The notes beneath the pieces were generated by a model. The model saw only the letters and a program-made list of their open reading frames with translations. It was not told where the DNA came from and searched no databases. DNA of 63,256 nucleotides, the filler included, from Perkinsus chesapeaki ATCC PRA-425 (taxonomy: Eukaryota; Protista; Perkinsozoa), in NCBI GenBank assembly GCA_013115145.1. It is 8 parts of 8 records of this genome, joined end to end, with 100 filler letters (N's around TTAATTAATTAA, not from the genome) between each part and the next. Parts side by side here need not be neighbours in the genome. Positions count along the whole stretch, not along the records: positions 1 to 25,485 come from JAAPAO010000523.1; positions 25,586 to 43,463 come from JAAPAO010000677.1; positions 43,564 to 48,677 come from JAAPAO010001190.1; positions 48,778 to 50,717 come from JAAPAO010001724.1; positions 50,818 to 52,030 come from JAAPAO010002098.1; positions 52,131 to 54,822 come from JAAPAO010001541.1; positions 54,923 to 61,957 come from JAAPAO010001047.1; 1 more part is not named here. The stretch is one strand, 5' to 3'. Shown one piece after another: positions 1 through 58,600 of the stretch (position 1 is the stretch's first letter; the number at the start of each line of letters is the position of its first letter). A program made the translations under genes and the position numbers.

Positions 1-3000
1 CCTGAGGCATTGGACTTGGCGTCCGGGCTTCAGGTTTGGCCTTCTCCCATACTCCCGCGCCTTTGGGATTTCACCCCTCCCATTTAGTGACATTTCCATG
101 GAATTATAGTGACAGCGCCTGTTTGTGCCAGTATGGTCACCAGCATCGTAGAGAAGCGTGCGCCAAGATGATCGATTATATGAGACTGCTTTCCGATGAT
201 GATGCTGTTTCATAGGGTTATACTATATGGGTAACACACAGTGCTGTGAATCTGCCCCTCGTAAACCAACAGGTGACGGAAGTACCTTGCCGGACTCCAA
301 GAAACCAGTTAAATGCTACATTCAAAAAGCCGGACCGTAGGATCGAACCCGGGCGGGATTATTATTAGATCAGAAGGCCGTCTCAGTTACTCCCCGAATT
401 ACAAAGCCTTTACTAACGAAAACTTAGAGTGGATGGAGTTCGTCAAGAATACATCGGGTGCACTAAAGTCACGGTCAAAATCTGGCCAAGGCACAGCAGC
501 CGACGACAGGCTTTTCACCCTGTATGGCATTCGTCCATCTAGTTGTTGAATTTTCCCCTCAGTGAGAAGTTCGTCGATTGCCCTGGTGGCACTCGGGAAA
601 CCTTAGGCAGCATAGAAATAGCCTCACCAGACGTCACAGTGTCAGAGAACGACACTGATTGGACAGCTCTGACCAAAGCGCGCGTTATGGACAAGTCAGG
701 TTCCACCACAGCCAAGGCAAGTCGCTAATGATGAGTTGATCAATACGGCGTTACAGGTCGAAGTGAAATCCAATGGCCATGGAACCGACAGTATCAGCGC
801 GGCCCAACTGAGCGTTAAGGTTAAGTGTGGCAAAGATCAGAAACATGACAGCCTGCGTAAGAATGTTTTTTGCTGAAGAATGTGCAACTGTTCTCATTGC
901 AGAGGTCGTCGATTCCAGTGACGCCAATAAGCGAGCTTACACTGTCACACATCGCTACTTTACTTTTACATGTTCCGAGTTCCAGGAAGGAGTGTCGAGT
1001 GATGATTTCAGAATCGGTATCCCTACTGTTTAATATCGGCTAATTGTATTATCAGATTTGGAAACTTCTCCCGGTCCGGACGCTTACGATGGCAGCGTTA
1101 TCATGTTGGCCTTTATCGTGGCATGTACAGCCAGTAAGACAGCCGAGTTACGAATCATAAGGATATTGCCGGATTAGGGCCGACCGATCAACTTCGCAAA
1201 GCTGTGGCGTCGGCCATCGAATCAATTATAGAGGAGAGTCCTGAATAGTCCTGTTTGATCATGTTCTACCAAGTGTGTTATGCTAAGTGTTCTGCTGCTG
1301 CTGCTCTGTCGCGTTGAGTTATTATGACTTTGACACGCAAGACAACTACGTTATAAATATCACACAGCCATATCCTTTCAATAGACAGCCACTAGGGAAT
1401 AAATATTGCAAACTAGTGAACTTGGGAGTATCCTCTGAAAATGGCATTATCATTGAAGACGAAATTAAATGCCCCAATCACTCACACAAAATAATACTCG
1501 GACAACCGTTGGTGAAGGGCTCGGCGAGCAACATGCCAAAGTTAGCATTTGAATAATGCATATTCTCATAATTATACATCGGATGCAGCTTCGTATTGTC
1601 AGTGGCTCGATAAAGCCCGACCACTAGTTCAATTCGCAGACGCTGCTATGGCCAGCGGGGACGATCTCCGTTTCTTGCTATCTGCTTTATTGACGGACTC
1701 TTCTCGTTTCTTCTTCTCGCGGTCGGCTTGATCCAGCAGGAAGCTCTGCACCTCAGGAACTTGAGCATGCTTCTTGAAGAGCTCATCGTCCGAAATCGGC
1801 ACGAATTTCTCGTCAAGATACTTAACGAATCGAGTCCGATAGTATTCGGGGGGCTCCGTGTCAATCTCATGGAAGCATCTAACCGGCGAAGTATTCCCAA
1901 ATTCACAGCAGAGGCTCCACGGCGGCACCTTACCCTATGGTGTACTTCTTCATTAACCTAGCAGCCCGTTTCTTCAATGTGTATTGCTGCAGTATATCAA
2001 TTATACCAACGTAATAAACCATGCAAACGCCTAACTTCAACACAGTAAGGATTAAAACAGGCAATAAATTGCCGACCTCGGTCATCATCCCAACCAGGAA
2101 CGCCTCCTTGATATAATTCAAACAAGCGACTACGTGGTGCTACTGATGTAGGTGAGGTGGGAGTAGCAGGAGCGGACGATACCTGACAGACTTCTGTAAA
2201 GAGAATATCCTAATAAAAGTCCAGGACTCACCACAATGGCTGCCGCGACCTGGTCGGCGTCTACCAATGCTTTAACGGCAGCAATATCTAAAAGAGCGGC
2301 AATTACCATGCCACCAATCACCGAGGAGGAGGAGGAGATGATGCAACACTTACCTGTGGTTTCATGTATACCTAATATAAGGGAGTAATCCATGATGCGA
2401 TGCTTCATGAGAAATTCAGTATCGTAAACAATGGCAGATTTGATCGCTGCACAGAGGACCTGTTCAAATCAGCATCTGAACCGCGAAGCATCTTAATCGT
2501 CTTACTTCTGGAAGCATAACAGTTTGTCCAGAAAAGTTGAGATCCTTGAGAACCTTGGGTGACGGCGGGCTATTATCCTGGCCACTGTCATGTCCACTAA
2601 GTTGCCCGTTATTCTGTCCAGCCGCTGGCGCGACTAGCTCACTGGAATTCTGAGCGACGTACCTGCGCAGGCGAGTTGAGAACATCCGGCAGTGTTCTAA
2701 CGAACCTGTCTTCGGTGGTTCCTTTCAAATCATATTTCCGTTGACATGACAGGCCTCCGAAAATGTTATTCATAACAACAAACCTAGTACCTTCAATAGC
2801 AGCAAAATGGCAGTCAGTTGTAATAGCGGAGCGAAGCGTAGGCTACTTACTTCGTTTGAAGCCTTGCAGCTTGATCTTAAACAGGGCAAAAAAGCGACAT
2901 AATATGGAATTGGAATTCCTAAGAGAATTGCCGGATCTCCACGGTAGTTGTCGCTGCTGCTGCTGCTTACTTGATGAAATGTTTAAGATAATCTCCGGCA

Positions 3001-4513: not shown

Positions 4514-7307
4514 TCAAGCCTTTTTAACTTCCCCCTTTGTGGTCACCAACACCACAGTAAGCATACAGCCATTCACATCCGACCTCCCCAAAGTGGCCTC
4601 TTCATTCTTCTGCAACATCTCCTTTACACTACGTCCAGGTGGCGGCACCAACTCTTTAAGATCGAACGCAGAAAGGCCGATGCCTTCCCAGTTCGCCACC
4701 AACGCTAGTAGGTCCTGAAAATACCATTGGCACCAATTGGAGATACACTTGACTATCGCCAATTGTTCTCAAAGGAACAGTTTATCTTATAGCCCATCTA
4801 CGGCGACCGTCTAAACCACGGGCGTATGAGTGATGACAGACCGATAATGGCAATGCAATCGAATAAAGACCGATATAAACCTTTCTCAAGAAACCAGTCA
4901 CTACGCCTCCTAACCCCTCAAGTTTTAATCCCGTGAAACAGCTTATGTAGAGAGACCATTCCAAACTACGATATCAAACCGGGTATGCCATACCGCATTC
5001 CCCCCGTATTACCCCAAGCCGCTGTTCTTTGCCCAACACTGCCTTCTTCCTTTCCCCATTACTAGTCCTAATTCCAATTCTAACAACATCTTTAGCTCCT
5101 TCCACAGGCAGACTAGGCATTGCCGGCACCGCCTCCTTTGTCTCCTCGCTGCTAGACTCCATTTCAACACTACTGTCAGACTCAGGGGATGAAGGAGTAG
5201 TCGAAGAGGGCTTCGATGATGACGTCTGTCAACAACAAAGACTCGTAGCCCTCATAGCCCGTGGTTGTTAAACTAAAGGTCCTTCCGAAATTCCGTGACA
5301 ACATTTTAGGATCGATATCTATGCAGTGCATCAGAAGCAACTTCCAAAGAATCTTCTAAACATTGGCCCCGCTATAGGTGGAAATAGTGGCGTTCCCCCA
5401 TTTCGGGCGTCCTGGTTACCGTGGTGCAATTTATTTTTCTGATTTCGGGGTAAAATAATATAAAACATGAGCACTTGTTTTATATATCCGAAACGGATGA
5501 TCGAGCAAGCCGAGCGTCCAACTAGGATTCTCATGTGACAGCCTATCCCCCACCTTACCCCAGAGCTCTGATGATGGTGGCGCCTCCTAGTCGGAGGCTG
5601 CTTGTCAAAATCGTATCGATCAGTGAAGTCAGTCATCTTCTGGAGGGCCTCAACCGCCTGACCAGCCAGCGTACCCCGACGAGCATCCACACCGTTACGA
5701 GGTATTACATCCTTAGCAAACTTACTAACGTCCCACTCTTCACATTTCCTTCCGGTCCTCGGGTCCAATACATGCACAAGAGGCAGCGAAGCCTGAGCCC
5801 ATCGTAGATAATTTCGTGGCGCGCGACAGTCTAGCTTAACCTGGTCTAGCCCCTTGCAGTAGTAGCTAAGATACTGCACTGCTTCAGCTTCCTCTTTTGA
5901 TCTCTGCCAAAGTATGAAACTAGTCTTGAGCAAATCCTGTACCATCGACTGCTTCCAGATATCCCTGAAGAGACCAAACCAGTCCGCAGGATTCTCTATT
6001 ATTTCTCAACAAAGCCACATGCAATCCTCTTATCCAAAGGATTATGGAGGGCAGTGCTGAAGACCCTATAATTTTACAGCCACTCAGATACTGGAAGTTT
6101 CAATAAAATCGACTGGGAAAGCCAGGTAGAACTACAGACCCTTTTTAGGTATCCGTAAGTATGTGTAACTTTTCTAGTAGCAGAAGCCAAAGCCATTATT
6201 ACCTATTTAAACTATGACTGAGGAAGTTCTCATTGTCCTGTATATTCACTATAAGCCATCGCTTCTCAGCTCTCGCCTTTTGAAGCACCTCCGCAAACGG
6301 CAGCGGCGAAGAGAGCCCTTTAGGCAGATTGAATAGATTCATAAATGCTGAACATCACGCACTCCTCCATATCCCAGGCCCAGTAGTACCTTTCTCGCCA
6401 TCGTTCGCAGCCGAGTCAGGCTCACCGTCGCTGCCCTGGTCATCATCATCGTCCTCCTCCTCAAAATAGAACTCCTCATTCTCCGCTTCATCTCCCATAC
6501 GTGTATCTCCATCACCAGTGCTGCCTCTTTGACCATCCGGAGAAGCGACTCTCACATAACTGAACACCACGACACAGTGAGCCGTCACAGCGTGCCATCG
6601 ACTACTACCTGATATTCCCCCCGACCGAGCCCCTGTTGCCCGGCACGGATCCGGTAGGCGAGGACAGCAACGTATCCCGAAATGCAGGTATCGCTGCCCG
6701 AACGTCTAAAGGGAAGTTCTATGGAATTGCAGTTGCCTATGCGGGGAGATATTCCAACGACATAAGGGGTTCCATCCCACCTCACGGGCGCATCCTATTC
6801 GTAATGGAAATGATTAGGGATTTCATCAAGCCCTACGTACGTGTTCTAATCCATCATATCGTACTCCCTTAATCTTAATGTCAGTTTAAACCCCTAAAGC
6901 AAAGAGCACTGCTGCTCCACTTCAAGGATCCTATCATGGCGCATTCTCCACTAAAAACCCCGGTACCACGCGGCACGCACTACTGAAGCAAAGCCTTCAC
7001 GAACACCTTAATTACTGTGCCTCACCCGACGGAAACATCGCTTTATCATAAGCACCTATCATTACTATCTTTACTGCCCTCCGTTGCCAAATGCGTATCC
7101 CTACACACCTAGCCACCCTCTACTACTTTCCTCTGGTACTGCTGCACCTCCAACACCAACATCAAAGTACAACGACGCTGCCCTATCCAAGTTGCCTCCA
7201 GCCATCTCGATATACTGTCTGGCCTCTGATGCCGTTGGGCAGCCGGTAAGACCCATGAACGACGCAACCGAGTCGTCGATCGCATCACTTGACCCTGAGG
7301 CGGACAT
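4514..7307 (-). CDS. UBXN7: UBX domain protein 7-like p97 adaptor (UBA-UAS-UBX), multi-exon
   Basis: N-terminal UBA-like SFMGLTGCPTASEARQYIEMAGGNLDRAASLYF; UAS motifs ARAEKRWLIVNIQDNENFLSHSLNR, SFILWQ and VHVLDPRTGRK; C-terminal UBX RIGIRTSNGERKK...FDLKELVPPPGRSV. Confidence 0.88.
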
Positions 7308-12193: not shown

Positions 12194-13309
12194 TTAAGGA
12201 TCAAGTTGGAGATAATCCACACTGCACACAGTCGATTCAGACTCAACGTGATGAACGACATGATGGCCGGGTTTAACATCATCAGCAGCGTCAACATCAG
12301 CACTCGATAGGCGTACCCTCTTATTGCTCTTCTTATCCTTAGGCACACGGTAGATGTACCATATTATCATTTGGGCAGCTCCCAGCACCTAAAAACAGGT
12401 AATGATGGATCGCTTCGCTCCGCCTTGTTATTGGCCTACCACTCCAGCGGCATTAGGTATCATAATGTGCATATCACCAGTGAAGAAGCCGTAACCGAAC
12501 CAGACCATCGCAGCAAGCCAGCCACCGAGCGAATACAATGGTGGCATGCAAGACGAATCCTTAGTCTCTGAAGAGGAGAAAGAACTAACCTAGAAAATAT
12601 CTTCTTGGTGAAGCCTTACGGATGATAGTCTTCAGCACTGCGAGGGGCGATGCGTACATCACAATGTTGACAACAACGCAGAAGGTTCCCAAAGTTGCAC
12701 TAGCATCGTGCGATAGGAACAAAGAGCAGTACATCTGAAAGGATAACAACAACACTTACCACTAAGAGGACAGCATCATATAGCAACCTTACAATAAGAA
12801 GATAGCAAAGGACTAAACCCAGGTAGTAAAGCACTGTAGTTCTCTTCTGTACAGCGTATCTCAAGAATATCTGATATAAGACAATAACGGCATTATAAAA
12901 GGCTACTGTACACTTACGAGCATGTACGTGACAAACACACATGAACTGAGAGCGTTAATGAAGAGAATAGAGTTACGGCCAGGAGTCTGAAAAAATAAAA
13001 CGGCATCTGAGATATCGGTGTTGTTGGTCTTATTACAATAAGAGCGTATGAAACCCACATAACTGATAATAAGGCCGATGCACAGTATGGCAAGGAGGAT
13101 AAGTTCTCTGTGCTGTGCTTCCTGACAATACCCACAAACGTGGGAACTGCCGTGAAGAACTGGCAGAAGGACACGACCGAACCAACCGAGCCGAGGATAG
13201 CTGCTATCGACCCAGCAGATAATAGAGAACTGCCAGCAGTGGCTGATGCTGCTGATAGTGTGGCATTCGCCATTGCGGCTACGGTCGAAGATGTTACGGC
13301 TGCCTCCAT
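12194..13309 (-). CDS. SWEET: SWEET/MtN3 sugar transporter, copy 1
   Basis: PTFVGIVRKHSTENLSSLPY, MYASPLAVLKTII, DSSCMPPLYS, IPNAAG and QMIIWYIY give two MtN3 repeats. Confidence 0.92.
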
Positions 13310-14698
13310 CCAACTAATAAAGACTTTCGACAAGCGAAAAAGACTTAAAACACCTGAAATGCAAATATAAGCCAATCTCACGGAAAATAGGGCCATGAAC
13401 AAAATCTCACTGCTGATTCACGGACTAGCTTAAATACACAAGTCAACCTATAAAAAATCTTCATTTAGCGCGTTGCACAAAATCTGTCTCCTTTCCATCA
13501 AGTCAATGAAAACTGAAATCAGCAGAGGAGATGGAAGTGGCAATCGTATAAAAACAAGTCACTCGCCGCCGGTGTAACATTCCATAAAACATCCCCAAGT
13601 CACGGCAGCTTCGAACAACTTTCTCCCTCGGGAATGTTCTGGTTTGTTCAGAACGTTCCTATCTGCTTCTGTATTCCCATTCATATGGCTGCACACTAGT
13701 CTTCCCTTATCAGTGCTCATAAACCGTATAACCTTCAATTGGCATAACACGACAGTCACTGGCTAACATCGTAGAAAAGAGGCGAACAACGATATTATTA
13801 GAACAACAACAACGGATGCGCCGCCCATCACCCGGGCAGCTGTACCCTGATGACAGACGACCATACCGCCACTTATCCGACTTTGGGGCTAATTAGGCAT
13901 AATAGCTACATAAGAAACAGCACCACAACTAGGAGCAAGCCACGCGGTATCATCAGGAGTGTTACACTCATTGGCAACCGACGGAAGCGAACCCCAGTGG
14001 TAAAAGCAATCTCCATTACCGAATGAACTAGATGTCCGTTTCTAGTAAGATTCAGTTCAAAGGTGAATTGCACAGTTGCCATTCAGCACTGTTACTGTAT
14101 CAAACAGTACTATATGGACTTTCGGTCAGGCTCAGATAGGGCCCGAAACGCCCAAAATGGACGAATGGGAAAACTAGAATTGTGTGAAGGAGCTGCGACG
14201 GTCATGCGGTTCTGTGGATCGACCGCCGCAAGCGATGAGACATTGTTCCGGTCGCTGGGGATCTCGGTGAAGCTCATAAATTACTAGACTTATCGAGAAG
14301 AGCATTCTGTGTAGCTCTCATCCACGATGGAAGTCCCACAGGCACGGAGGTAAATAATAAAGATGATAGAAACGGCAAACATCAGGTAACATATATCCAT
14401 GCTACCTAATCGACGCCAACCAACAGGTGGCGGAAAAACGTGAAACAGTACATAGCAAAGTGGGAATCCTACTTGTTCAAGTAGGGACAATGACCAAGAA
14501 GACAAGAAACAGTGGACGCTGATGCTAACGCTAGTTAGGCGGCACATTAGTAAAGCAAGCTAGAGCCTTATCTTCCATATATGTCGATAACACGCTCTAC
14601 ATTGCCACCAACGACAGGCCAATAGACGGCCCACTAGTACTAGATCCATACAGGGATCACCATACACCGACGGCAATAGCATCTCAAAGAGAGCCAGT

Positions 14699-15981
14699 TT
14701 AGGGTTCGAGAAGCAGATAGTCCAAACTGCAAACGGTGGACTCGGAGTCGCTCAAGTAGTTAGAAGGTTTTATGTCATCTTCAAGGTAACCATATTGATC
14801 AAAGACAGGTTTGGCCGCTGGCACTCTGTAAAGGGCCCAAATAACGAGTTGAACGGCACATAGAACCTGAAAAATACGATCAAGGAAAGCAACACGGTTT
14901 TAGCCAAGAACGTATTATCCAAATTTAATCAGCTTCAAAGGTTCGAGATCAGATTCAGAAATAAACTAACTCCGCCAAACAACAAGAGTAGGAAGGCCTT
15001 CGTCTGGATGCTGCCTCCTGACTACTCAGATTCCACGGAACGCGCAAGGCTGCCAGACAAATCAAAGGCTACCATTCATTCAAGGGGGAGCATATTAGCC
15101 TTTTAGGTGAGACCTATGGAATCACTTAAAGTCCAAAGTGCGATGTAAAGTACAATAATTCCTATGGCTTACTGAGCCGCTTCCATTAGGTATCATCAAG
15201 TGGGCATCACTGGCAGCAAGACCATATCCAAACCACACTAGCGCGCTGATCATACCAGTCAAGGAGTATAGCGGAGGCATGCAGGAGGAATCCTTTGTTT
15301 CTGATTATAAATAATAGTAAGGCAGCAAACTTCCAGCTTACTCATTATTGTCGGGACCACTGCCAGTGGGGCTGCGTACATGCAGATACTGACCACTACA
15401 CAGCAGTTGCCAAGAGTGCTGCTAAGTGAGGGAGTGAGCAATGACAAAAACATCTGAAAAATAATAACCAGACACCAGACTGTGAAGACTCACCGTAGCT
15501 AAATAACAAGCTCCCATCGTGGCACAAAGAGTTGAAGTACGCCTCTTGGCATCCACGAATCTGATGAAGACCTGAAATGCGGGCACGTGACCGGAGCGCC
15601 CAGTTGCATTGGTTGCTCACAGCTAGGTAAACCAACTGGAAAATCAGGGCGATGAAATTGACGACCAAAACGCATGTTCTACCAGGTACCTTAAGAATGG
15701 TAGGTAAGTGAATATTATGTTGGGCGGGCACGACTTACAATGAGGGCGTAGGTAACCCATAGAAGTGACAGAAGGGATGTGGTGCAATAGGGCATAGGAG
15801 ATAGGTTCCCCGTACTCTTACGTTTCGACACTTCAATGAATGTCGGAATGCAAGATATATATTGTATTACGGAGAGAACCGATCCGACCGTGCCGAGTAT
15901 AGGCGCTATTGATGCAAGTGACACACCAGTAGAAGCGGCGGTGGGAACAACAACAACAGCAACGTCGGCAAAGGCCTCCAT
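14699..15981 (-). CDS. SWEET: SWEET/MtN3 sugar transporter, copy 2
   Basis: PTFIEVSKRKSTGNLSPMPY, MYAAPLAVVPTI, KDSSCMPPLYS, IPNGSG, QLVIWALY; ends SESTVCSLDYLLLEP*. Confidence 0.9.
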
Positions 15982-41218: not shown

Positions 41219-41312
41219 GCCCCATCATGGGGCCCCCATGAAAAGCCTATTTGTCCGGCCGATCCATGTCGTTGCGTTGTTACTGTTGCTAAATACCCTA
41301 CTAGACCTTCCA

Positions 41313-43373
41313 ATGTGTCCAGCCCCGGTAGAGACCAGAGATAGTGTTAGGATCGGAGGCTTTTGTGGCTTCTGGGGTGACAGCCTCACTGCAGCACCGC
41401 AGCTGGTGCAGCGCGGGAGAGTGGAGTATCTTGTGGGGGACTACCTGGCCGAGCTGACCATGTCACTGTTGTACGGAGCAAAGCAGAGATCGGGCGGCAA
41501 GCTGGGGTATGCAACCGATCTGGTGGAAGTTATAAAGATGGTGGGAGGAGAGACCAAGGCCAGAGGAATAAAAATCGTAACGAATGCCGGCGGGCTGAAC
41601 CCAAAAGGATGTAAGGAGGTGATCGAGAAGATATATGAAGAGCGCGGTTGGGGGGAAATAAAGGGTAGGCGCGGGGAGAGAGGGTTGAGGAGGGGACGGT
41701 CTCTGTCGTAGTTGGGGTGGTGTACGGTGATGATGTCCTTAAGGAGATCGGTGACATTATTGAGAATGTGCCACATAAGAAGAGCCTCACTACGGCTAAC
41801 GTGTGGGTGATAGGAGGGAGGGGAGGGTGGCATGGTGGTGGTGACGTAGGTACCTCGGAGCTGCGCCTATAGTGGAGTGTTTGGCTTCTGGAGCTGACAT
41901 TGTCATTACTGGTCGAGTTGTGGACTCGGCATTGGTTTTAGCGCCGCTTATCTACGAGTATGACAACGAGCTAGATTGGACTCTACCGGCAGTTTAGGTT
42001 TGGTTGGTCCATGGACGACTTGGATTTGATGGCTTCGGGCACGCTGGTAGGGCACGTGCTAGAGTGTGGTGCGCAGGCCACAGGAGGGCTCATGACAGAC
42101 TGTATTGATGCGGGTGTGGCGGAGGGATGGTACGAGCGGGTGTCTGGCTGTGATGGGATGAGTCGGTCGAATTGGTCAGGTCGAATATGGGGTATCCTGT
42201 GGCTGAGGTGCTGGCCAGTGGGGAGTTTCTGTTGTCTAAACCGCCAGGGACGGGTGGCAGAGTTATGGTAGGAATGGTTGGAGTAAGCACTCAGTTAACT
42301 ATTGCTAATAATTGCACCGGTACCAAATACGCGGATATCCGAGAATAACGGTATGCTAAAACCATGGGGAGGGTCGCACTTATAGCTACACTGTGGTGGC
42401 AAGGGCTTACTGACAGCTTCCATTTATTTTACGCTTTTCACTGGCTCCCTGGAAATGAACTCGCGGCCGATTCAACTTACATCCAATTGATTGTGTAATG
42501 AGAAATGGATGATTAATGCTGATGTTATATGACTGATAAGCGGAACGCGTCACCTAAAACGCGAGCTTTCCGGCAAACTCTTCATTTTTTATTGCAGATA
42601 GCTGTGTGCGTCGGAAGTGCCTATGGAATGCCAAAAGGATTATTTACTACTGTTAAAAGGACTGCGTGATGCATTTTCTACAACTGGGGATATTCGAACT
42701 CCCTATTATATCACGGCACCTGAAAGGGGACTTCTGGCTTGTTTATTCAGGTTGAAGGCGTAAAGGAGCAAATCCTTTATGAGATCGGAGACCCCGGCAA
42801 CTACATAGTAAGATTGGCAGAGCCTTGTCGAGGGGTCGTACGGGCCGTCATTTCTTAAGGTGCCGGATGTCGTGTGCGATTTCACTCAAGTGAAAGTCGA
42901 CCAAGTCGGCAATGATGTCGTGAGGGTGTCCAACGCCAGAGGCAAATGCCCCACGGAGACATACAAAGTTTGTGGTAGGAATGCAACGGATGGGGGCGAC
43001 TCATCGCGGACCGCTGGTGGAAGGTACGTATCTGGACGGCTTCAAGGTCACTACTAGCATAATCGTTCGGGGGCACAACGCCGAGGTTAAAGCACGCAAA
43101 ACGGTGGAAGCCATTATTAAAAGTAAGCCGGCAGACTTGTGGGGATTGTTGACTATGGTTGGTAGGAGTGGAAAGGCATCTTGGTACGAAACTGGACGAG
43201 ACGAGAATTGAAATCATTGCTGGGGACTTTCAGGTGAAGGAATTACGACGGGCCAATTTGGAGAGTGCTTTTATTGCAGGCAATGGCAAGGCTGGCAGCG
43301 AAGCATAGAGATAGAAAAGTGTTGCAGCTATTGGCAAACGAGTTGGTTAGTGCAGGAACGTCGATGGCACCAG
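41313..43373 (+). CDS. atuA: Acyclic terpene utilisation AtuA (DUF1446) family protein, 3' truncated by a gap
   Basis: [85 protein letters not shown]. Confidence 0.9.
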
Positions 43374-43394
43374 GTGAGAAAAATACGAAAAAAA

Positions 43395-43463
43395 CACCCA
43401 CCGTGGGGCTCGAACCCACGACCACAAGGTTAAGAGCCTTGCGCTCTACCGACTGAGCTAGGC
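43395..43463 (-). tRNA. trnK-CTT: tRNA-Lys(CTT), first 4 nt lost in the gap, antisense within an atuA intron
   Basis: GCCTAGCTCAGTCGGTAGAGCGCAAGGCT-CTT-AACCTTGTGGTCGTGGGTTCGAGCCCCACGGTGGGTG folds into a full cloverleaf and is followed by a T7 Pol III terminator (43388-43394). Confidence 0.95.
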
Positions 43464-43563
43464 NNNNNNNNNNNNNNNNNNNNNNNNNNNNNNNNNNNNN
43501 NNNNNNNTTAATTAATTAANNNNNNNNNNNNNNNNNNNNNNNNNNNNNNNNNNNNNNNNNNNN

Positions 43564-46055
43564 GAATGATCTACGGCAGCAGCATTGCTCCGTCGTGCCT
43601 CGAAGGTGGCATGAGCCACGTCGAGCACGGCTTGGTTCCTACTCCCGACAACCTCCCACCTCCTCCGGTTCTCACTGATAATGGTAACCTTGACCTTCTT
43701 CTAGACCAGCTTCTTGACATCGCTGAGCCCGAGCCCGATCAATGCTCCTTCATGGACGACATTCTCGACTTTCGTGCGGATAACACACCTGCTAACGTCT
43801 TGCCCACTAAGTACGACGAGTACGACTTGCCTCTGAAGTCTCAAGCTCTCACTGAAGCTTCTGCTGAGAATCCTATCCCGGTTCTTGGTATCGAGGTTAT
43901 CGATAACGGGGATTCTTTGCGGTATCCTTCTAAACCTATCGACTCCATCGTTAACAAGTCCCTTGACTCGCCGCTCACCTACAGCGATTCACTCGGTCTC
44001 CTTGGCACCCTCTTGCAGGAGCCCGATTTCTTCGACTTCCACATCATTCCGGCGAAGAATTTACTCGTTGGTCTTATTAGCAAAGCTCGTGCAGTCCTTC
44101 ATCACACATGGAGCACTCCTATACCTACTGATGTTCAGGCCCTTATCCGAGCTTGGGTCGACTTCTTACGTGAACACCCACCACAAGCTATCCCGCGTCG
44201 TCTTCACACTGATCACGCTCTTGACGTCTACGTTGACGCCTCCAAAACCATGGTTGCTTATGAAGTCCGTCAGTTCGGCCGCCCCGTTCTTCGTGGTCAA
44301 CTCACTCTCACCAAGTCCCAGCGTAATTTACACATCAATGCCCTTGAGCTCCTTGGTATCTATTACGCCCTTGCTCGAATCCGTTTACTTGAGTTCGACA
44401 CTCGCATGAAGTTCACTGACGTCCGTGTGTACTGTGACTCTCTCACAGCTGTAGCTATCGCTCGCGATAGGCGAGTCCCCGGTGGTCTACATGAGGCTCT
44501 TACTCGCAAGTATCTCGAACTGATCATTGCTATTACAGGTACTCGTCAAGTTACTTACACACATATCAATGGCCACGCCAACTACGCTGACTCTGGTACT
44601 CGATCTACCTTGGTTGATGATATCCTTTCTCTTCGTGACAAGTACGACTCGGTTGACACCAAGCAGTCTACCTCCAGTCTAACTGCTTTTCCTGTTCGTA
44701 AGCGTGCAGATGCTTTTGATGATGATAGCATCGGCCGCCGTGTCCGGCTTCGCCACTCTGGTACTCAGTTGCCTCCTGCTACACCTTCTAATCACCACCC
44801 TCATGGACAAGCTTTGCCCGCTTCACGTTCTACTGACGATCTTCCTCCACAGGTACAGCCCGCTCCTACACCATCACCTGCACCTACCACTTCGAGGACA
44901 ACCGATGATATTCCTTGCACTCGTCTCATTGCCTACGCCTTTAAACGACTTCCCGATGACTTACTTCGCCGTCTTGAAGATCTTCCTTTGATCGATGGTA
45001 TCAAGCAAGTTGTTGATACTGACCTTCAACAAACGTTGGTTGAATTGTATCACTCTACTTACCACGAAGGTATCTATGCAACGTACGCTCGTATTAAGAA
45101 GTTATATTCCTGGTCGAACGTGCTAGATAAAATTTCAGCTACTACTAAGTCATGCCTTTCATGTGCGAAATTGTTAACACATGCTGGTGACCTTTCGTGG
45201 AAACAACGTCCTTCACCACAAGTTCTACCTTCTACCCCGTTCACTCACTTGGCTCTAGGTGTCCACGGTCCTTACTTCAACAAGTACTACGTCCTTACCT
45301 GCACTTGCAAGCTCACTACTTATCTCATATGCCGCGCATTGCCTACTGCACCGTTGGCTAGCGATGTCATCGATCTTCTCAACAACATCACTTGTGTCTA
45401 TGGTATTGTACCTACTGTCATCCGTAGTGACAACGGTAAAATTTTCCACAAGGCTGCTTCACAACTTACTCATGTGACCTGGGAATTTACTCCTACCTAT
45501 GCTTCTGTGTCGAACGGTCAGATTGAACGTAAACATCGTGATTTAGCTCGTTTCCTACGTCTCGGTTTTCTACACGCAACTCCACCTGTCGTCACGTGCC
45601 CTGATCCACACTATTGGACTCATCTTGTTCAAGTGGCCACTATGCGTGTCAACTTACTTGTCATTCCATCTGCCCACGGTCTCTGTGCACGCGATTTGGT
45701 ATACAGCTTCCCCACGCATGATCTCGTCTCTCTGACTTGTTACCCTCATGTCTCTGACAAAGATACTATCTGGCGTCAACATCGTCAACAAGCACTCGAT
45801 CGTTCACTATCACAAATACCACTTACACGTCGACAAGTTCCACTACAACCTGGTATGCTTATTTTACTCAGAGAAAATCAACCTCGTAAAGACCAACCAC
45901 GCTGGAGTGACCCTATCGAGATTAAAGAAGTTCGAGGTGATAACAGACTTCTCCTTACAGATGGTCGACATGTTCACAGCAAGAATATTAAACTTCTACC
46001 ACATAATTATGATGAATTTAATGACGATGACGATATTAGTATTGATGATGACTGA
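43564..46055 (+). mobile_element. LTR retrotransposon pol (C-terminal RT, RNase H, integrase), 5' truncated
   Basis: RT: YGSSIAP...SFMDDIL...VLGIEV. RNase H: YVDAS...HINALEL...YCDS...HINGHANYAD. Integrase: H-H-C-C zinc finger, IRSDNG and SNGQIERKH; the first catalytic Asp appears as Gly (ALGVHGP). Confidence 0.9.
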
Positions 46056-46178
46056 CCCTCTATTCTTTAATTCACATCCCTTGTATTGACTAAAACACAA
46101 AACGTTGTTCATATTTACTGTATATCTGATGAATTTTATCGTGATTATGTGAAACACCCCTGTAGTTTACACTTCATT

Positions 46179-46191
46179 AGGGAGGGGAGGA
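46179..46191 (+). other. Polypurine tract preceding the 3' LTR
   Basis: AGGGAGGGGAGGA lies immediately before TGTTGA, 124 bp after the pol stop. Confidence 0.75.
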
Positions 46192-48658
46192 TGTTGACCA
46201 ATACCTTGGTCACTTACTCTCTTGCATGATTCCCTAATGTCACACGAACATGGAATGTCCATGGAATTACGTGTTGTGTAACTCCTAACCACAATCTATA
46301 CCTTGTTGAGCATCAGTCATGGCACAGTACTCATCTCCGCCCTTCATAGGCCTTGTCAAGTATTGCATACTTGTCTTCCACATAGTCGTCGTATCCTCCT
46401 CATGTCCTCTCCACCATTGAAGAAAACCAGAAGAGGTCTCAGGTCTCCACTCAATTCCATTCGTCGCAAAATCTTGACAGCTCTGCGAATAGCAGGCCTC
46501 AGCCCTCTGCTTGAAGCAGTTCTTGACCATAATATACTAGTCGTTCGTCCTCGTGAAGCAACCACTATACGTTATGGGTATCCTCTTACAAAAAGTTCTC
46601 GTGGAAGCCAGCCTCATGATTATGCGCCTCCTGTGGAAGTGACTACTACACTTCAACACTGTCACTGGGCCTTATCTCAAGAATTCTTCTTGTCCACTGA
46701 CTACGAACTTCCTACTATGCTTCAAGCCACTGTAGCAATCCAGAGTAGGCTGACTCCTGCGGAACTTAACTGGATTAGAGAACACAACACAAAGTCTATT
46801 TCGTCTTGGATTGCTCATAAGCTACCTGCTTCCCATAAGACATCGCCAGCTGCTGCGCATTGGAATGTTAACCACATCTCCGAGCTGGTCAACCTGACTC
46901 ACTATGTCGATACCACTCTCTGCGAGAATCTTGCCGAGGGCTTCCCGCTTCTTGGTCAGATCCCCAGTGGTGGAGTGTTCCCACCTGCCACCAAGCCTCG
47001 GGTTGCAAAATTCGCAGCTGATGACCTTTCTTGTTCTACTGTCAGCTTGAGCAAGGTAGCTTCCTACCTCCTGCGTACGCCGGTGGAACAAAGGCTACAA
47101 GATGCAGTAATTTCGGATGTCTACAACGAAATCAAGCTAGGCAGGGCTACCGGACCCTATGACCTCCACGATCTGCCTGCGAGTATTACCTATGCTTCTC
47201 CATTATTTGCGATTGACCAAACAGACAAAATCAGGCTTATCTCCAATTACTCGTTTGCAGCAGGAGGTAAACGCTTCAACGATGCGGTGACTACGTCACA
47301 CAAAGTCGAAATGCCCAGGCTACCTCATCTGGCGAGGCTGCTATCGTCGATGCCTCAGACCACTGCGGATATGATACACGTGGCCAGACTTGATCATTTG
47401 TCTGCCTACAGGCAACTGCCACTTCTCCCGTGTGACGCCGTCAAAGCCGCTGGTATGTTCGTTGACAAAAATGGTGTTCCGAAGGTCTTCATTCCCTTGG
47501 TATGCCCCTTTGGGGCTGTTGCTAGTGATAGCAATTATCTTAGAGTTGGGGAACTGCATTGTCATCTGATTCGATGCTTGGGTTTCTGTAATTTATTCAG
47601 TTATATGGATGATTATTTCCCAGTAGAATATGCTGCGTGCAGCAACTCTTGCTTAGAATTTTTCTATTTTGTCCATAACCTCTCGGGGGCCATCATCAAA
47701 CATTCGAAGACAATCCCGCCTGCCTGTGAAACTACATTGCTAGGTCTAAGAATAAATTTACGGGATAGGAAGTGTCTAGTAACCTTGACTCCTGAACGGC
47801 AAGATCGTATTCTCTCTCAACTCAGGGATGCTACTCACGATATAACATTAGTTAACTCTAAACTAGCGGGACGGTTAGCTTTCTGTTGCGAGGCTCTGTT
47901 CGGGAGACTGGGTAGAGCTCCCTGTCGTACGCTTATTCGACACTCTATAGGAAAACCGGTGCCTGCAGTTAGTCTACTGGCGGCGTTACGCACCCTTATG
48001 TGCTTGCTCACCACCCATAGGTTCAGCAGAGATTTACTGCTCGAGCTTAGACTTACTTCTTCTACAGCACCTTTCATATGTTATGCGGATGCGTCAACCA
48101 CTTTTGGCTTGGGATTTTATGCACCTCAACAACATAATCTTCCATGTCTGAGTGGTTCTTTGCAGTTCACATCATCAGAAGTGTCTATTAATGTTCTAGA
48201 ATTACTAGCCGCAGCGTCTACCCTTGAGTCGCTTCATGCATGGTTCGAGAATAGACCTGTTATACTTTTCAGCGACAGTTCTACCTGTAGGTCGCTTTTC
48301 CATCACGGCTCTAGTTCGTCGCCTATACTTAACTCGATGGTAGGGCACTTCTGGTCTAGGCTTGTGGACTTACACGTGTATACGGTTTTCATTGCGTATG
48401 TTAAGTCAATTACGAATCCGGCTGACGTACCTTCGAGGGGTGGTGAAGTACTGCACTCCATCACAACTCCTTTCAAGTTACCGCCTTGGTGGCAAGGCTC
48501 GTTGTTGCACCAGTGGTGAGCCGGTATCACGTATTATATTCTCACTTTTCTAATGTTGACTGATTGAGTTAGTCTAACTACCTTAAATATTTTGCAGTAT
48601 CTCATATTTCGTCTTAGCATCATTCCCCATCATTCCCCCTCATGAATGATCTTCAACA
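46192..48658 (+). repeat. 3' LTR termini TGTTGA...TCAACA enclosing an RT ORF
   Basis: 6-bp inverted termini at 46192-46197 and 48653-48658. No second LTR is in the window for comparison. Confidence 0.55.
46303..48519 (+). mobile_element. Intact DIRS/Ngaro-type RT-RNase H ORF (738 aa) without gag or recombinase
   Basis: EGFPLLGQIPSGGVF, KIRLISNYS, LDHLSAYRQLP, CPFGAVAS, FSYMDDYF, LLGLRINL, YADAS, SINVLELLAA, FSDS, NPADVPSRG. Confidence 0.9.
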
Positions 48659-49543: not shown

Positions 49544-49682
49544 TTGCCTCATGCGAGGCGCCCTAAAAATTGCGATAAGATCCGTTAGAATCTTACGACG
49601 GGAATTGGAGTAGTTTTCAACTAGCAAAAAGCGCATCTCCGCAAGGCGTCATAGATAGCGCTATTGCCCCTCCCGCAAGGAT
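49544..49682 (-). ncRNA. U4: U4 snRNA
   Basis: 5' ATCCTTGCGGGAGGGGCAAT; kink-turn C-TAT-GA-CGC/GCG-GA-G; TTGCTAGTTGAAAAC; Sm site AATTTTTAG; terminal hairpin GCCTC-GCAT-GAGGC. Confidence 0.92.
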
Positions 49683-49833
49683 AGTATGAAATAGCACTGC
49701 AGCCACTTGGCACACTAGGGATATGGCAGAAAGCTGGTAGTATTGAAGGGCATGATAATATAATTTGAAGGGCTTGATAAATTCTTTTGGGGAGATGACT
49801 TTGCTCACACGAGACATTCATTTGACTTGATAG

Positions 49834-49949
49834 TTGGAGCATTGGCTCCGCAAAAATTGTGAAAGTTCACATCAGTGCAGTCATGCCACACGGCAATCTT
49901 TAGTAAAAGGCGAAAGATTGATTCGCTTTGAGATGACCGCTGTGATGCT
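49834..49949 (-). ncRNA. U5: U5 snRNA
   Basis: Invariant loop I region AATCTTTCGCCTTTTACTAAAGATT, long closing stem, Sm site AATTTTTG, 3' hairpin GGAGC-CAAT-GCTCC. Confidence 0.96.
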
Positions 49950-50173
49950 AGTATATGGCGCGGAGAGGAGGACATGTGGATGCCAAGGAGGGGAAGTGCG
50001 GTAATATAAGGGGGGAATTGGCAAATCTTTTGGGACTTTACTTTATGGGCTGGGGTGAAATTTGGGGACTCAGAGGGGAATTATAGGGACTTGGAGGATC
50101 TTTAAAGGTACTTGCATATAATTCAGAGACACCCGTAGGGACTTTTTGGGGCATTATATATATTATTGATTAG

Positions 50174-50348
50174 TTGGTGCCTGCGCTATTTCTTCATTTG
50201 CGCAACGGCACCGCTACCAGAAATTTCGCTGTGGAACCCACACTTGGTGAGCCCTGGAGCTTTACAGTCCTCTGAAGTCGTGCAGTGAGCTGCTCCGCCC
50301 CACGAGAGCGAGCTGCTTGAGCCTCGCCCAACGCCAGCCAGGTAAGTT
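50174..50348 (-). ncRNA. U1: U1 snRNA
   Basis: 5' AACTTACCTGG; loop II CACTGCAC (U1A site); stem III CTCAC-CAA-GTGTGGG; Sm site AAATTTCTGG; stem IV GGTGCC..TGCGC/GCGCA..GGCACC. Confidence 0.94.
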
Positions 50349-50547
50349 ACCCTTAATTATCCCCAGAGGTAACTTCTGGTAGTGTACTTGTATGAAATGT
50401 GGTAAAATATATGAATATAATTGTAAAAATTTACCATTCTTCGGACATCCAGTATTCTCGTGAGGCATTTCTGGGGAACTAGAGGGCACCCAAACCGGTC
50501 CTATTTCCGAGTCGCTGAATGAATGTGATTCATAATTTAATTATCGG

Positions 50548-50717
50548 TTGCCTCAGAGAGGCTTGGGTCCGCCACACTTGACGAAAAGTGCAAGGCCAAG
50601 GCGACAGTTGAGTTGAGGCCCGATCTGGGATCAAGGCCGTCTACTCCCCAGCAAAAAATTGTTGTGACAGTTCTAGCAAGCAGTAGCTTGCATATGAGTT
50701 GTCACACTCATAAGAAC
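50548..50717 (-). ncRNA. U2: U2 snRNA, 5' end (branch-pairing region) lost in the gap
   Basis: GTTCTT then stem IIa ATGAG-TGTGACAA-CTCAT; IIb GCAAGC-TACT-GCTTGC; IIc complement TGTCACA; Sm site AATTTTTTG; loop IV TTGCAC. Confidence 0.88.
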
Positions 50718-51236: not shown

Positions 51237-51239
51237 CGG

Positions 51240-52130: not shown

Positions 52131-53040
52131 CTCTACGCTATCTACAAGACATAACTGATGACAATTTAGGACGATTCACTATCTTACACTGCACTGGCCC
52201 GAGCAACAGCGCCGATGTCTATACCCGCCATCCTCTACTAGGTCTCCTCACGAACAACGACCACTATAATGATATTAATCTCCCGCTTACACCTACAAAT
52301 ACCACCCTATCATTAATGGCTATCAAACGACCTGCATCAGTAACTACCTTTCCGAGTGCTAAACATCCACGAACTGCCTCAACTACCGCCCCCTATCCTT
52401 ACCAACTACTACTTCCACCTCTTGATACATCACTGCCCGAAATTCTGCGGACAGGTGCTACTGTCAGTAAAAATGAACGACAACAACTACTACATCAACT
52501 ACATCATGACTACGGACATAAAGGTGCTACAACTATCAACAAACGTGTTCGTGCATTCAACATCATGGCCCAACGTTGCCGACGAGATCAACAAGCTCAC
52601 CAAACAATGTCATACATGCCAAGCTACAATCAATTATCCTCAAGACGGCTCACTAAAATCCCCACCATCTACTATACCCCAAGCAACGAGTAGCTCACAA
52701 GCATGGTCCGTTATCTACATGGATGCTATCGGTCCTCATACTTTTGACGACAAACCTGACTATTCTATCACTGTTATGGACAGCTACTCTTCATCGGTCA
52801 TTATCTATCCGACCCTATCAAGACCTACAGCTCAAGACGCTATTGATGCCCTCACTACAATCCAACGCTACTACCATCGTCATCCTGCTGGTCTAAAGAT
52901 ACTAACAGACAGAGGTTCCATCTTTACCTCAACCCTGTTCGATAATCATATAGATTCTATCCAAGCTGAACATCTACTCTCTCCCGTTGATTGTGGTGAA
53001 GCAAACGGACGACTGGAACGACTACACCGTGAAATAGCAC
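52131..53040 (+). pseudogene. Ty3/Gypsy-like RNase H end plus integrase, frameshifted and truncated
   Basis: HCTGPSNSADVYTR; HHDYGHKG / WPNVADEINKLTKQCHTCQ split across frames near 52560; IYMDAIGP, LTDRGSIF, ANGRLERLH. Confidence 0.85.
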
Positions 53041-53883
53041 ATAAGCGGCGGCGGCGATGTTATGATGTTATGATGTTAGATGGTGGCAGCGTTAGAATGT
53101 GGTGTTACTTCACGAAAGGTCGTGGGTTCAACCCTCAGGGAAACTAAATCAAATCATTAAAATTCGAACATCGATTTGTGGTTCAACACGTTACGTAGTT
53201 TGGGCTGTGCTACTCGTTTGCGCCCGGTATGCCGAATCGGCATTGCCATGTCGAATTTCCCTTCCGAGGTAGCATACCTCGAATACTGGTTCATCAAGAA
53301 ATTTTCATGTGCCGCATTTGAGTGTTGAATGCTGGGAGACTCGGCAGATCGACTGTAGTTCTTCTACGTTGCAGATGTAGCGAAGGCGTTAGTTTCCAAG
53401 GCCAGCAACCGTGAGGTCCGGGTTCAATTCCCGCGGGGACTGTGGGTAGCGGCTCATTTGGACAAGAAGCCCACTTGCGGTGCGTGAAAATGTTTAAGGC
53501 GGGTCGCGGAGCCGCTCCGCGACTTGCCTAAAAAGTTTTTGTACGTATGAGATGACGATGTACGGGTCAATAGTCGTTCCGTTGATTCTCGAAACCTTAT
53601 GAATCACTATCGAATCAGTCGGTTGGGTGTAGGGGTGAGGACCAGTGGCTCAGCAGATGTCCCACAGAGCCACGGTCACGGGATGCGCTCCGTAACTTTA
53701 AGCATATAAACTACCATTGGACTATAAACTACCAACAAAGGAGCGTCCCGTCACCCACTCTCACCCTTAAACCCAACCTTGCACCAGTCATAGAAACTAG
53801 CACATTACACTCCCTCACAACCAGGAGCCTAACCTTGATCACACGCAAAACTCGTCTCTTCAACGTGAGACGGCTCAAAAACA

Positions 53884-54822
53884 TCAAGAACCTCCATCGA
53901 GAATCTTACTCGCATTTCCCCTGGTTTTCTTGATCAATGCTCTCTTTGCATAGGCATGCCAAACTGAGCTGGATTGGCTCCAGCCGCCTGAAGTCCTAAC
54001 TGTACTATCATCACAGCCCGACTCCACCAAAATAGAGGCCCCGCTGTGGCGAAAGGAATGGGCCGTTAGGCCCTCAATCGCCCAATCGCAGATATGATGC
54101 GGATACCATATGCCCTCTAAACTGCTCTCCAAACTTGTTCGTATTCATAAGGGACACTCTAGGAAACAATCTGCCTTCATCGCCACATACCCGTTTCTTC
54201 TTCTGAAGCCAGTGAGCCATGCAGAAGTACTTCCTGCAATCATAGGGACGATCGCAGACTGTTTCTCTATTCTCATTAATCTGGGTTTTTGTCGGACCCA
54301 GGCTTACCGTGACTAGCAGACCCGGAGCTTCAACAACACACTCAATGTCTCTCCCTCTCAGTGATTTCACGTCATCGAACCGAAGGACCATGCAGGTTGC
54401 AGGCATCACGAATTTCACAGTCCAACCACCAGAGCCCTCCACCAGAGACATTCTCGCTAGTGCCTTCACCGCCTCGTCACATAAGGTTTCCGCTTTCTTG
54501 GGGGGCCTAGCATTCCGCTGCAATCGAGCCTGCCCTCCTTTCAAAGCTCTTTCTATAAAGCCATTCTCCTCACGACTAAACGCTACACCCAGCTTAATCC
54601 CCCCTATGGTTTTCAAACCCGCGATATACTTCCGTAACGTGCTCGGCAAGATGTTACCTTGCTCCGTCAAGAATACGATCATGTCCATGATCTTTACAAC
54701 GGTCAACGGATTGCTCACGCTTATCTCTCCGTGTAACCTTTCATAATATTTTACAGCCGTTTGGTACGATTGATTAGTCCTCTCTTTTATGGAGTCTGCC
54801 AACAAGGCTTTCCTATCCTCTA
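53884..54822 (-). pseudogene. DIRS/Ngaro-type tyrosine recombinase with a frameshift
   Basis: SAM-like N-terminus (TNQSYQTAVKYY, PSTLRKYIAGLK), catalytic R (VLRFDDV) and K (TKTQ), then in another frame HSFRHSGA, GGWSQ and AY. Confidence 0.88.
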
Positions 54823-55613: not shown

Positions 55614-58600
55614 ATGATGATGATGTCTGGTACGATGTCCTCATCAAACTTCTCGCTGACTGATCTGGCGAGATCTCATGTCATACAAGATATGATAGGA
55701 CAAGTTAGGGCCAAACTGAGTCCAAATAAACGGTCGGAGGGAACGGTAGTAGTTGGGGGAAGTGGGACAGAGGGGCATTGAATTGTGTGCTGGATGTGAC
55801 TTGCATCACCTCACTTTGAAACTGATAAAGTAATCCATTCTTAGATTACCTCATCTTGAATCGGATGTAGTAATTCACCCATTTGTCATCTAGTTTGTAG
55901 CTTAGTTAAAAGTCGATGAATTAAGGTGTTTTTTTCATTTAGGGATCCTCTCCAGCAGTGAGGCCTCTGGCATTGGTAATAGATGCTGTCAGCCCTACCG
56001 GCATATTGAATGTGATTATATATAGATACTTGATTATCATGCCCTAAAGGTTGTATCGGGTTGCTGTAGCACTACTGATTTACTGGAGGAAGGTAGTAGC
56101 TGAGGAGGGAAGGTGTCGTTCAAGCCTCTCCCATCCCATCGGGAGTCGTTTTCGTCATACTGTCTTGAGGAAGCAATGAAAACTTAATTTGATTTGATTC
56201 TTAATCTGTGCGCTGAAAACGAGTTATTTTCCCCCTGAGATTTTCGGTATATTTGCGTATCATCGAGCTGCAGAGTTTCGTCACCGTAGGGGCTGAGGCA
56301 GTTTTCTTGCCGAGTTCTGGGAATCGATTCGACAGTTTGCTTAAGTTTCGTAAAGCAATGTGATTTGCAAATACACCACCACCCATTGACTGATAGCTAG
56401 CAGGGGGGAGCCGGAGAGGCCTCAAGGCTGAGGAAGAAATTGACGGGGGCAACGTAACTATCGTCAATGAGACGATTCATTGGATCGCAACGTGGATCGG
56501 ATCTAATCAACACTCGACCGAAAGCTCAGGGTGTGGAGGAGAACCTTTCGATCGAGCTGCTTGTCGTCGAGGAGCAGATTTCCATTTGAGGAGATTGTCG
56601 TTGATCAGATATCGGAATTATAGATCTGCTTGAGAACGATCGTGAACTGGCGAGTGATTATGATGCAGTTTATCTGATTCAACCTACACCGGTAGTATCT
56701 TGAGGTTAACCGTGCAAGATACGAAAGAGGTTGATTTGTTTTAGAGCTCGATTGATTATATAGTGAGGGATTTCAAGGATGTAGATAGTGATCCTAAAAA
56801 GAAGAAGGAAAAGGTAGTACCGAACTGAATGCGACGTGCAATATTGCTGGAAAACTCCCCTATATAGAGCAAGAAATAATATATTATATATTATTGGTGT
56901 ATCATTAAATAATCATCATTATTATCATTATATTATACTCATTATGACTGCCATAATTGATACCTCGAAATTTGTAAAATAATATTAGAATGCAGACTGG
57001 ATTATTATAGAACTGTAGAATAATATTACTGTAGCACGCATCTGCAGAGCCCACTTCCGGTACCCACACGACACTCCACGAGAGACGACTTGGATTTTGC
57101 TTGGCGTTTCGGTTTCATCATGTGTTCGGAATAGGGCGGTTTATAGGGTTTGAGTCCTCCTCCTACTAGGCAGTGCTGGTCTAAGTCGATGCCTGCCGTC
57201 TTAGAAGTTATTCGTTTTTTCTATCAGTTTCGACCAAAGTATCGCTCAGCATTTGTGTACTGTACGAGCCCGCTACCGAAGAGAGCGATCGATCAGCTGG
57301 CGCCGGTGGCTGATGTAATGAGGAGTATCTTTAGGTTGAGCGAGGTTTGATCGATTTGGTTTTCAGTTTGTAAATCGTTGTGGAGCATTGGTCGACTTCT
57401 TCCAAGATTATGTCTGTTTTGACGAGCGGTCTTATCAGTGTGATGAGCCGTTTGCAATAAAGGCGTAAGTTATTAGAGGATCTTGCAATCTTGATAAATC
57501 TTGCATTTTCCTAAATCCCAGGCTCTCCGCAGAGTGCTCTGATGCTCACTTTGTGAATACCCACTTGAACTCCATTCTATCAGTATGTACTACGCTGAAT
57601 CAGAAGGTAAAATGGTGGTGCCGTACGTTTGATATTTCGTGGCGTGTGACGCTGTGTTGGTATTTGTTTGATTCAGCCGAGCGTTATAAGATATCAAGCA
57701 AACACTCGATCGGGATTCCCGAAAATAATTGCGGAAAAATTGATGCAGAATTTGGATCTGGTAAGGAGGTGGGATTCGAACCAGGGCCGACGGATTGGGA
57801 GGTCGAGGAACTAACGACTACGCTATTATTCAGGTGTATTCCGAGTCTACTGGAAAGCCTCCACAGAGTAACTCTAAAGTCCTGATTGTGGACAGGTGAG
57901 AAGGGGTTGGATTGGGATGAAGTAGGAGTTATCGAGAAATCCAACTTGGTAACCCTGTGTCTGCACAACCAAAACTCTAATTGGATTGCTAAGAAGTCTC
58001 CTGTGGCAGGGAATTCACCCGTTACAGAAGGTAGGAGGATAGTGCCTCCAATCCACCTGTTACAGGAGGTAGGAGGATAGTGCCTCCAATCCACCTGTTA
58101 CAGGAGGTAGGAGGATAGTGCCTCCAATCCACCTGTTACAGGAGGTAGGAGGATAGTGCCTCTAATCCACCTGTTACAGAAGGTAGGAGGATAGTGCCTC
58201 CAATCCACCTGTTACAGGAGGTAGGAGGATAGTGCCTCCTGTAATTGCTAAGGCTGTTGAGTAGGTGGGGTTTCATTCACTGAGGGTCAACCCTTTTATT
58301 GAAAGTGAGCTAGTACTTGAGACTCGTACTATTTAGAAGTCGTCTATGCCATCATAATATGTGGCGGTATAATGTTTGTGCCATCACATGAACCGTGAAC
58401 AGGCTTCACTGTCGTCATGTCACGTTCTACCGTGGTGAATATCTTAGCTCAATGTCCCTCTGTTGATGTGCCTCCCTGTGAGAATTCCACCCAACTGCAC
58501 ACCGGCAATCTGAAAATTTGAGGGTAGCATCAGTTTTAGTTGGTCCGTCTGAATTTAGGGTACACCGGAGGTGGAGCGGTGTACTTAGATGATTACTTAA

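Follow-up and report, generated by a model that had tools for sequence, protein, structure and literature searches.

B-box-bearing relics of tRNA genes form a dense, intron-resident class of elements in a window of the Perkinsus chesapeaki genome

The shellfish parasite Perkinsus belongs to the sister lineage of the dinoflagellates, whose chromatin is unusual. A stretch of 63,256 nucleotides (nt) from the genome of Perkinsus chesapeaki ATCC PRA-425 (assembly GCA_013115145.1), referred to below as the window, was found to contain, besides one intact tRNA-Lys gene, 14 relics of tRNA genes, most of them located in spliceosomal introns, many of these short (about one relic per 4.5 kb, 14 in 62.5 kb). 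The relics descend from whole tRNA genes of several isotypes and are a real, dense and intron-resident class, of which no earlier description was found: in the literature searched, mostly papers readable without subscription, neither tRNA relics nor B boxes were seen to be reported from introns of Perkinsus. The reading favoured here, a modestly probable one, is that they are the remains of many different tRNA genes in which selection keeps the promoter face of the DNA as a TFIIIC-like site while the RNA fold decays.

The B-box consensus GGTTCRANNCC occurred eight times in the window, once in the real tRNA-Lys, compared with 0.63 ± 0.81 times in 100 shuffled windows, which served as the control for the motif counts. 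A first-pass annotation of this DNA had claimed at least seven exact B boxes outside the real tRNA, and seven were confirmed. The looser pattern GTTCRANNC was found 35 times against 13.4 in the shuffles, and the B box combined with C48 18 times against 1.5. A weight matrix of tRNA positions 44-66 was built, to avoid circularity, from reference tRNAs taken from 16 unrelated marine eukaryote metagenome loci which share the tRNA-Lys of the window, one tRNA being kept per anticodon (n = 27). With the cut-off placed at the score that gives one expected false hit across the window, this profile yielded 19 matches at 15 distinct sites, namely the real tRNA and the 14 relics. Named after the window coordinate of tRNA position 52, these are 349, 17811, 19303, 19553, 19831, 31473, 37142 and 57782 on the minus strand, and 27330, 29622, 29840, 35084, 53125 and 53421 on the plus strand. 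The set includes 11 of the 12 sites first listed; the twelfth, 6737-6785 (6768), has one mismatch in the B box, scores below even the threshold of three false hits and was dropped as doubtful, and 29840, 31473 and 53125 had been overlooked. Of the general tools, the Rfam scan of the window scored only the intact tRNA-Lys and four small nuclear RNAs (snRNAs), ARAGORN at standard settings reported a single tRNA, Lys-CTT at 43394-43464, and the output of relaxed ARAGORN was near shuffle level and mostly noise, with 53362-53441 as the sole standout.

The similarity to tRNA genes extends beyond the search motif. The flanks (positions 40-73) resemble a reference tRNA at p < 0.05 in eight of the 15 sites, and the 5' half does so in four (29840, 57782, 53421 and 53125), the best-matching parent tRNAs being of different isotypes among the relics. 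TTTT stands at tRNA positions 73-80 in six of the 14 relics, against a background of 1.8%. One of them, relic 37142, is antisense to its host and has its TTTT in register at a place where a pyrimidine tract is impossible. The homology of the flanks, the differing parents and the in-register T-runs show that the relics derive from tRNA genes in the genome and not from B boxes that arose by chance.

The confirmed host introns were established from annotated Perkinsus proteins, which map exactly across the splice junctions, or from the exon sizes of four paralogs. Two NCBI P. chesapeaki proteins, an E3 ligase and a Sec1/Munc18 protein, match the window residue for residue across 21 and 23 GT-AG introns, as expected of DNA from P. 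chesapeaki or a near-identical organism, and P. olseni proteins run unbroken across three relic introns (those starting at 29340, 29737 and 57761). Eight of the 14 relics lie in homology-confirmed introns, one (37142) in an intron backed by a paralog, and two (349 and 35084) in introns from prediction only. The remaining three are outside introns, 19831 just 5' of a start codon and 53125 and 53421 in DNA without a detected gene; no spliced-leader gene was found near the intergenic relics. The statement of the first-pass annotation that the relics fill their introns is true for introns of 45-73 nt; four relics have longer hosts, of 117-561 nt, and lie at one end of them. For comparison, the median intron of P. 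marinus is 49 nt long (PMC7789003, from its Table 1).

In six annotated genes with 58 introns, chosen partly for holding relics so that the intronic share is biased upward, GTTCRANNC was found at 11 distinct sites in introns (9321 nt) and at one in exons (7830 nt), p = 0.007, and a profile relic was present in eight of the introns. In this count a single intron stands for two repeat-derived introns of Sec1, of 42 nt each, together with one of 98 nt. Among introns longer than 100 nt, five of seven matches are at most 30 nt from a splice site where 1.3 would be expected (p = 0.002), a proximity that would also result if short introns had been lengthened later. Two putative RNA runs of a diverged relative join AtuA exons across GT-AG gaps of 40-60 nt and leave the relic introns uncovered, and the E3 ligase gene had no relative in the metagenome contigs.

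Decay of the relics has been uneven. The outer T-stem pairs are retained in 20 of 42 cases, which equals the chance level of 20.4 ± 2.5 obtained by permuting partners, compared with 81 of 81 in the real reference tRNAs. This first test was performed on a 14-site set with 6768 instead of 31473 and again gave 20/42 when repeated on the profile set, bearing out the initial observation that T-stem pairing is lost while the B box is kept. In the seven exact matches G46 is present in all and C48 in six, versus eight of 21 stem pairs, and uniform decay is rejected (p = 0.004); among the 27 real reference tRNAs, G46 is present in 19 and C48 in 21. Canonical A-box patterns showed no excess in the window (12 vs 11.8 and 2 vs 1.9), and a profile of the 5' half found only the real tRNA-Lys and no relics, where 2.3-7.5 (plus one false) would be expected under equal decay (p = 0.0002-0.036). 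None of seven relics tested by folding was better than its shuffles, the intact tRNA-Lys itself reaching only z = -0.84, and no relic forms the cloverleaf with paired stems of a functional tRNA gene. The donor at 17829 overlaps a stretch that resembles an A box; it showed no similarity to a 5' half (p = 0.89) and was attributed to chance.

The SWEET paralogs C and D are 44% identical and saturated at fourfold sites (5/19), and their introns 3 carry the B box at the same offset, this being the top-scoring of 24 intron pairs. In a diverged second copy of the genome (run X2), the alignment continues from the exon through the first 34 nt reached in intron 29340-29648, as far as tRNA position 45; elsewhere on that contig, three pieces end 2, 5 and 7 nt inside an intron. 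Run X2 covers 26950-43460 with a near-identical copy and with this second one. The exons of the second copy are about 85% alike, and its variants agree with those of the two putative RNA runs; its presence may reflect a mixed sample or a divergent subgenome.

A variant of the A box was recognized in part of the set. Five of the 14 relics (29622, 29840, 53125, 53421 and 57782) carry CGTTA 34-35 nt before position 52, in the place of the invariant GG of the tRNA D-loop, where none of the 27 non-Perkinsus reference tRNAs has it. CGTTA with the B box occurs five times in the window versus 0.11 in the shuffles, and at most once in any of the 100. The sequences between the two boxes are unrelated, with 3-10 of 20 positions identical and a mean of 5.7, versus 6.9/20 for unrelated tRNAs. 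The pattern was noticed post hoc, and its p value of 4e-10 leaves a margin for that. The T-run is absent from all five CGTTA relics and present in six of the other nine (p = 0.03). Two fixed motifs at a fixed spacing with a free spacer are the outcome expected of selection on a bipartite DNA site. A function of CGTTA as an antisense branch point was considered and rejected, since it fits only intron 57761-57833, TAAC near the 3' end being found in four of 58 introns.

Retention of intronic TFIIIC-type sites, one of two explanations put forward in the first-pass annotation, fits the uneven decay, the loss of canonical 5' halves and the shared variant A box, with binding as its prediction. According to PMC12409998, TFIIIC recognizes an isolated B box with nanomolar affinity via tauB, and tauB occupies extra-TFIIIC (ETC) sites without RNA polymerase III (Pol III). 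The occurrence of both orientations argues for a role of the DNA or chromatin rather than of an RNA. The events may be pictured as follows. The tRNA genes of Perkinsus would be high in copy number and quick in turnover and would land, in either orientation, inside pre-existing introns, the intact tRNA-Lys probably representing the starting state. They would then cease making tRNA, and the pressure towards introns of about 50 nt would trim the dead genes down to the bound surface. Their role would probably be exerted at the level of chromatin, as ETC-like sites near exon edges.

A possible alternative, to which we give a limited weight, is that the relics are neutral debris: a tRNA-crowded genome would leave many dead copies, chimeras with mismatched stems would arise where tRNA genes recombine or undergo gene conversion at the B box, which is common to all tRNAs, and the search itself would favour intact B boxes. 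Copy numbers are indeed high. The 68-nt contig of tRNA-Lys has a depth of 8618 against 104, which corresponds to about 80 copies, and Kojima and Jurka (PMC3706591) credit the P. marinus assembly with 349 tRNA-Leu-CTT and 116 tRNA-Gly-GGA genes. Relics also come and go among paralogs, and stem strands that look intact yet are mismatched are in surplus, resembling some real tRNA in 16 of 28 cases versus 9.2 under point decay (p = 0.02). Neutral debris leaves unexplained why CGTTA keeps its spacing in five relics whose spacers are unrelated, and it does not account for the lack of canonical 5' halves, the B box common to the saturated SWEET paralogs and the proximity to splice sites in the long introns.

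Several points weigh against selection on a TFIIIC-like site. The surplus of stem strands just mentioned fits recombination between tRNA genes, and selection is not needed for this result. The columns G46, C48 and CGTTA were chosen only after the alignment had been inspected, the reference tRNAs come from organisms other than Perkinsus, and the cross-lineage evidence from the diverged copy consists of one alignment end. The relics are absent from most paralogous introns, so that a function, if there is one, would not belong to a particular intron. Finally, the 73-nt intron 57761-57833 is a single whole antisense tRNA gene whose ends lie within a few bases of the intron ends, and intron gain may have occurred before the paralogs split.

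This last intron, with ends nearly coincident with those of a tRNA gene, also speaks for tRNA-derived introners, in which tRNA gene copies in exons would have become introns through splice-like ends and many ordinary introns would be older decayed copies. It agrees with such an origin that relics abut splice sites and that the short introns contain little else. The explanation nevertheless seems unlikely and, although the first-pass annotation had proposed it, fits poorly. The internal exons of the four SWEET paralogs agree in length (69, 78 and 112-115 nt) and in phase, and the P. olseni ortholog of paralog A, obtained by profile search, backs the exon junctions; a word search with SWEET exon 1 gave no match. 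Among their introns, relics occupy only introns 1 and 3 of D and intron 3 of C, and these three relic introns all stand at positions common to relic-free paralogs. Intron 37109-37155 likewise has a relic-free counterpart, 39437-39484, within one codon in the paralog of an unnamed gene pair, so that all four testable relic introns are at shared positions and none is at a novel one. Junction repeats average 1.75 nt in eight relic introns and 1.64 nt in 50 others, without target-site duplications or terminal repeats. The boundaries of the relics keep no fixed register relative to the intron ends, three of the 14 are outside introns, and pairwise identity outside the motif is 0.25-0.33, the chance level, in keeping with the original remark that the relics differ from each other. 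The shared positions, the equal junction repeats and the lack of family likeness leave recent introner activity unsupported.

It is still more improbable that old families of tRNA-derived short interspersed elements (SINEs), with cloverleaf-less masters bearing a CGTTA A box, were inserted into existing introns. The heads of SINEs retain A and B boxes without stems, and a common CGTTA could mark a family. Against this, the five CGTTA relics resemble one another in their spacers no more than unrelated tRNAs do, no common tail was found within the window, the T-run is at the tRNA terminator position, and neither the best parents nor the identity outside the motif point to one family. The case of a single SINE family, named in the first-pass annotation as one that would contradict its proposal, is therefore not borne out in the window.

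In comparison with known systems, the relics would seem to work most like the ETC sites of yeasts and mammals. Both have a B-box consensus without an intact, working Pol III gene and are free in orientation. ETC sites are conserved between lineages (PMC12409998 and PMC3245943), for which the relics offer one alignment end and one paralog pair. The relics, unlike ETC sites, visibly descend from many tRNA genes, sit in introns of 45-73 nt or at intron ends, and carry a variant A box in a subset; ETC sites number eight in yeast and about 2000 in mammals, against the density given above. With tRNA pseudogenes and intronic tRNA genes (RF00005) the relics share descent, here documented by homology beyond the B box in flanks (8/15), 5' half (4/15) and T-run (6/14), and a discriminator base and T-run terminator in register; they differ in uneven decay, with the motif kept, the stems at chance and the canonical 5' halves missing. 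Like the introners of Micromonas, Aureococcus, Amoebophrya and Polarella, a recognizable element may fill a whole intron, but the relics have neither family likeness nor direct or inverted end repeats and use positions common to relic-free paralogs. The tRNA-derived SINEs resemble them in that they have no cloverleaf and carry A and B boxes spaced as in a tRNA; the relics lack a common body or tail (within the window) and target-site repeats and have many parent isotypes. Dada transposons of Perkinsus marinus are known to break tRNA genes, inserting at TAGCTC in the A box (PMC3706591), whereas the 5' ends of the relics fit no single cut site, transposon ends not having been searched.

The individual sites are as follows. 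The relic at 324-356 (minus strand; host intron predicted only) is a tRNA 3' half with variable loop, B box, acceptor strand and T-run. In the SWEET genes, a sense relic on the minus strand occupies nearly all of the 49-nt intron 3 of paralog C (17781-17829, a 3' half with T-run), and further sense relics on that strand lie in the 51-nt intron 3 of D (19269-19319), which is homologous to intron 3 of C, and in the 49-nt intron 1 of D (19517-19565). A relic with T-run at 19804-19838 (minus strand), directly 5' of the start codon of D and without a cis intron, likely lies before the trans-splice acceptor of this gene. Antisense relics on the plus strand are present at the 3' end of intron 27308-27681, whose gene bears the annotation E3 ligase (27323-27351), at the 5' end of intron 29340-29648 (29588-29643, bipartite with CGTTA and B box) and at the 5' end of intron 29737-29853 (29795-29853, near full length with an Ile/Asn-like 5' half, CGTTA and B box), and a weaker sense relic is at the 5' end of intron 30924-31484 (31452-31480, minus strand). 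A sense relic lies in a candidate 45-nt intron predicted at 35073-35117 (plus strand), in frame and stop-free, and the 47-nt intron 37109-37155 (plus strand) is filled by an antisense relic whose T-run reads as an A-run after the donor. No host gene was found for the bipartite relic with CGTTA and B box at 53090-53146 or for the near-full-length bipartite one at 53378-53442 (both plus strand). The whole 73-nt Sec1/Munc18 intron 57761-57833 (plus strand) is a full-length decayed antisense tRNA gene, Asp-like, with CGTTA and B box.

An open exon of an AtuA-family gene ends in a GTGAGA donor, and the intact tRNA-Lys(CTT) with its T-run (43394-43464, minus strand) begins 21 nt further on, in the same antisense layout as relic 37142; this tRNA gene likely lies in an AtuA intron, the next exon being lost in a gap. 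The metagenome contigs L005, L007, L008, L010, L011 and L012 carry a tandem unit of tRNA-Lys, U4, U2, U3 or signal recognition particle (SRP) RNA, U5 and U1. In them the intact tRNA-Lys gene is immediately preceded by a decayed 5' copy. Contigs L003, L004, L006 and L014 contain dense clusters of 8-20 different tRNA genes of eukaryotic type, partly in common order. In the window, the snRNA genes U2, U1, U5 and U4 are clustered in a single orientation at 49547-50717 (minus strand).

Other features of the window were recorded. The four tandem SWEET (MtN3) paralogs at 12200-19790 (minus strand) have equal exon sizes; the apparently identical block of exon 1 in B and C suggests recent conversion, and NCBI lists some of the P. 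olseni homologs under the name RNA polymerase subunit RPAC2 where Pfam gives MtN3. The motif TTTCGTGGCG recurs at 5812, 28568, 57635 and 59826 (four times, versus 0.08 in shuffles), three of the copies falling in introns of annotated genes, and the stretch 28551-28571 has matches on many further contigs of this genome. The intronic stretch 28421-28450 is likewise a short element of many loci, matched by numerous other contigs in which the flanks differ. A 43-nt tandem repeat in a Sec1 intron (58021-58240) is annotated as exons in P. chesapeaki, its residues being absent from the P. olseni protein. The frames at 43564-48520, 52131-54822 and 62057-63256 are presumably retroelement-like (integrase, reverse transcriptase/RNase H, tyrosine recombinase), and the N gaps that separate them hold the spacer TTAATTAATTAA, so that adjacency across the gaps is unreliable.

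The contigs of run X1 total about 44 Mb; for a genome of this size, the density of 14 relics in 62.5 kb extrapolates to nearly 10,000. If this is true, the number would be several times that of mammalian ETC sites in a genome about 70 times smaller, and selection on sequence would operate inside introns of 50 nt. It is tempting to go further and to speculate, at rather long reach from these sequences, that across the genome thousands of dead tRNA genes make up a lattice of TFIIIC-type sites where exons and introns meet, the CGTTA class binding the factor and yielding no RNA and some introns, such as the 73-nt intron of Sec1, being born of tRNA genes. The intron made of a whole tRNA gene leaves open a route of intron gain for which no precedent was found in the literature searched. 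Perkinsus, standing beside the dinoflagellates, would then provide a direct test of the origin and role of ETC sites.

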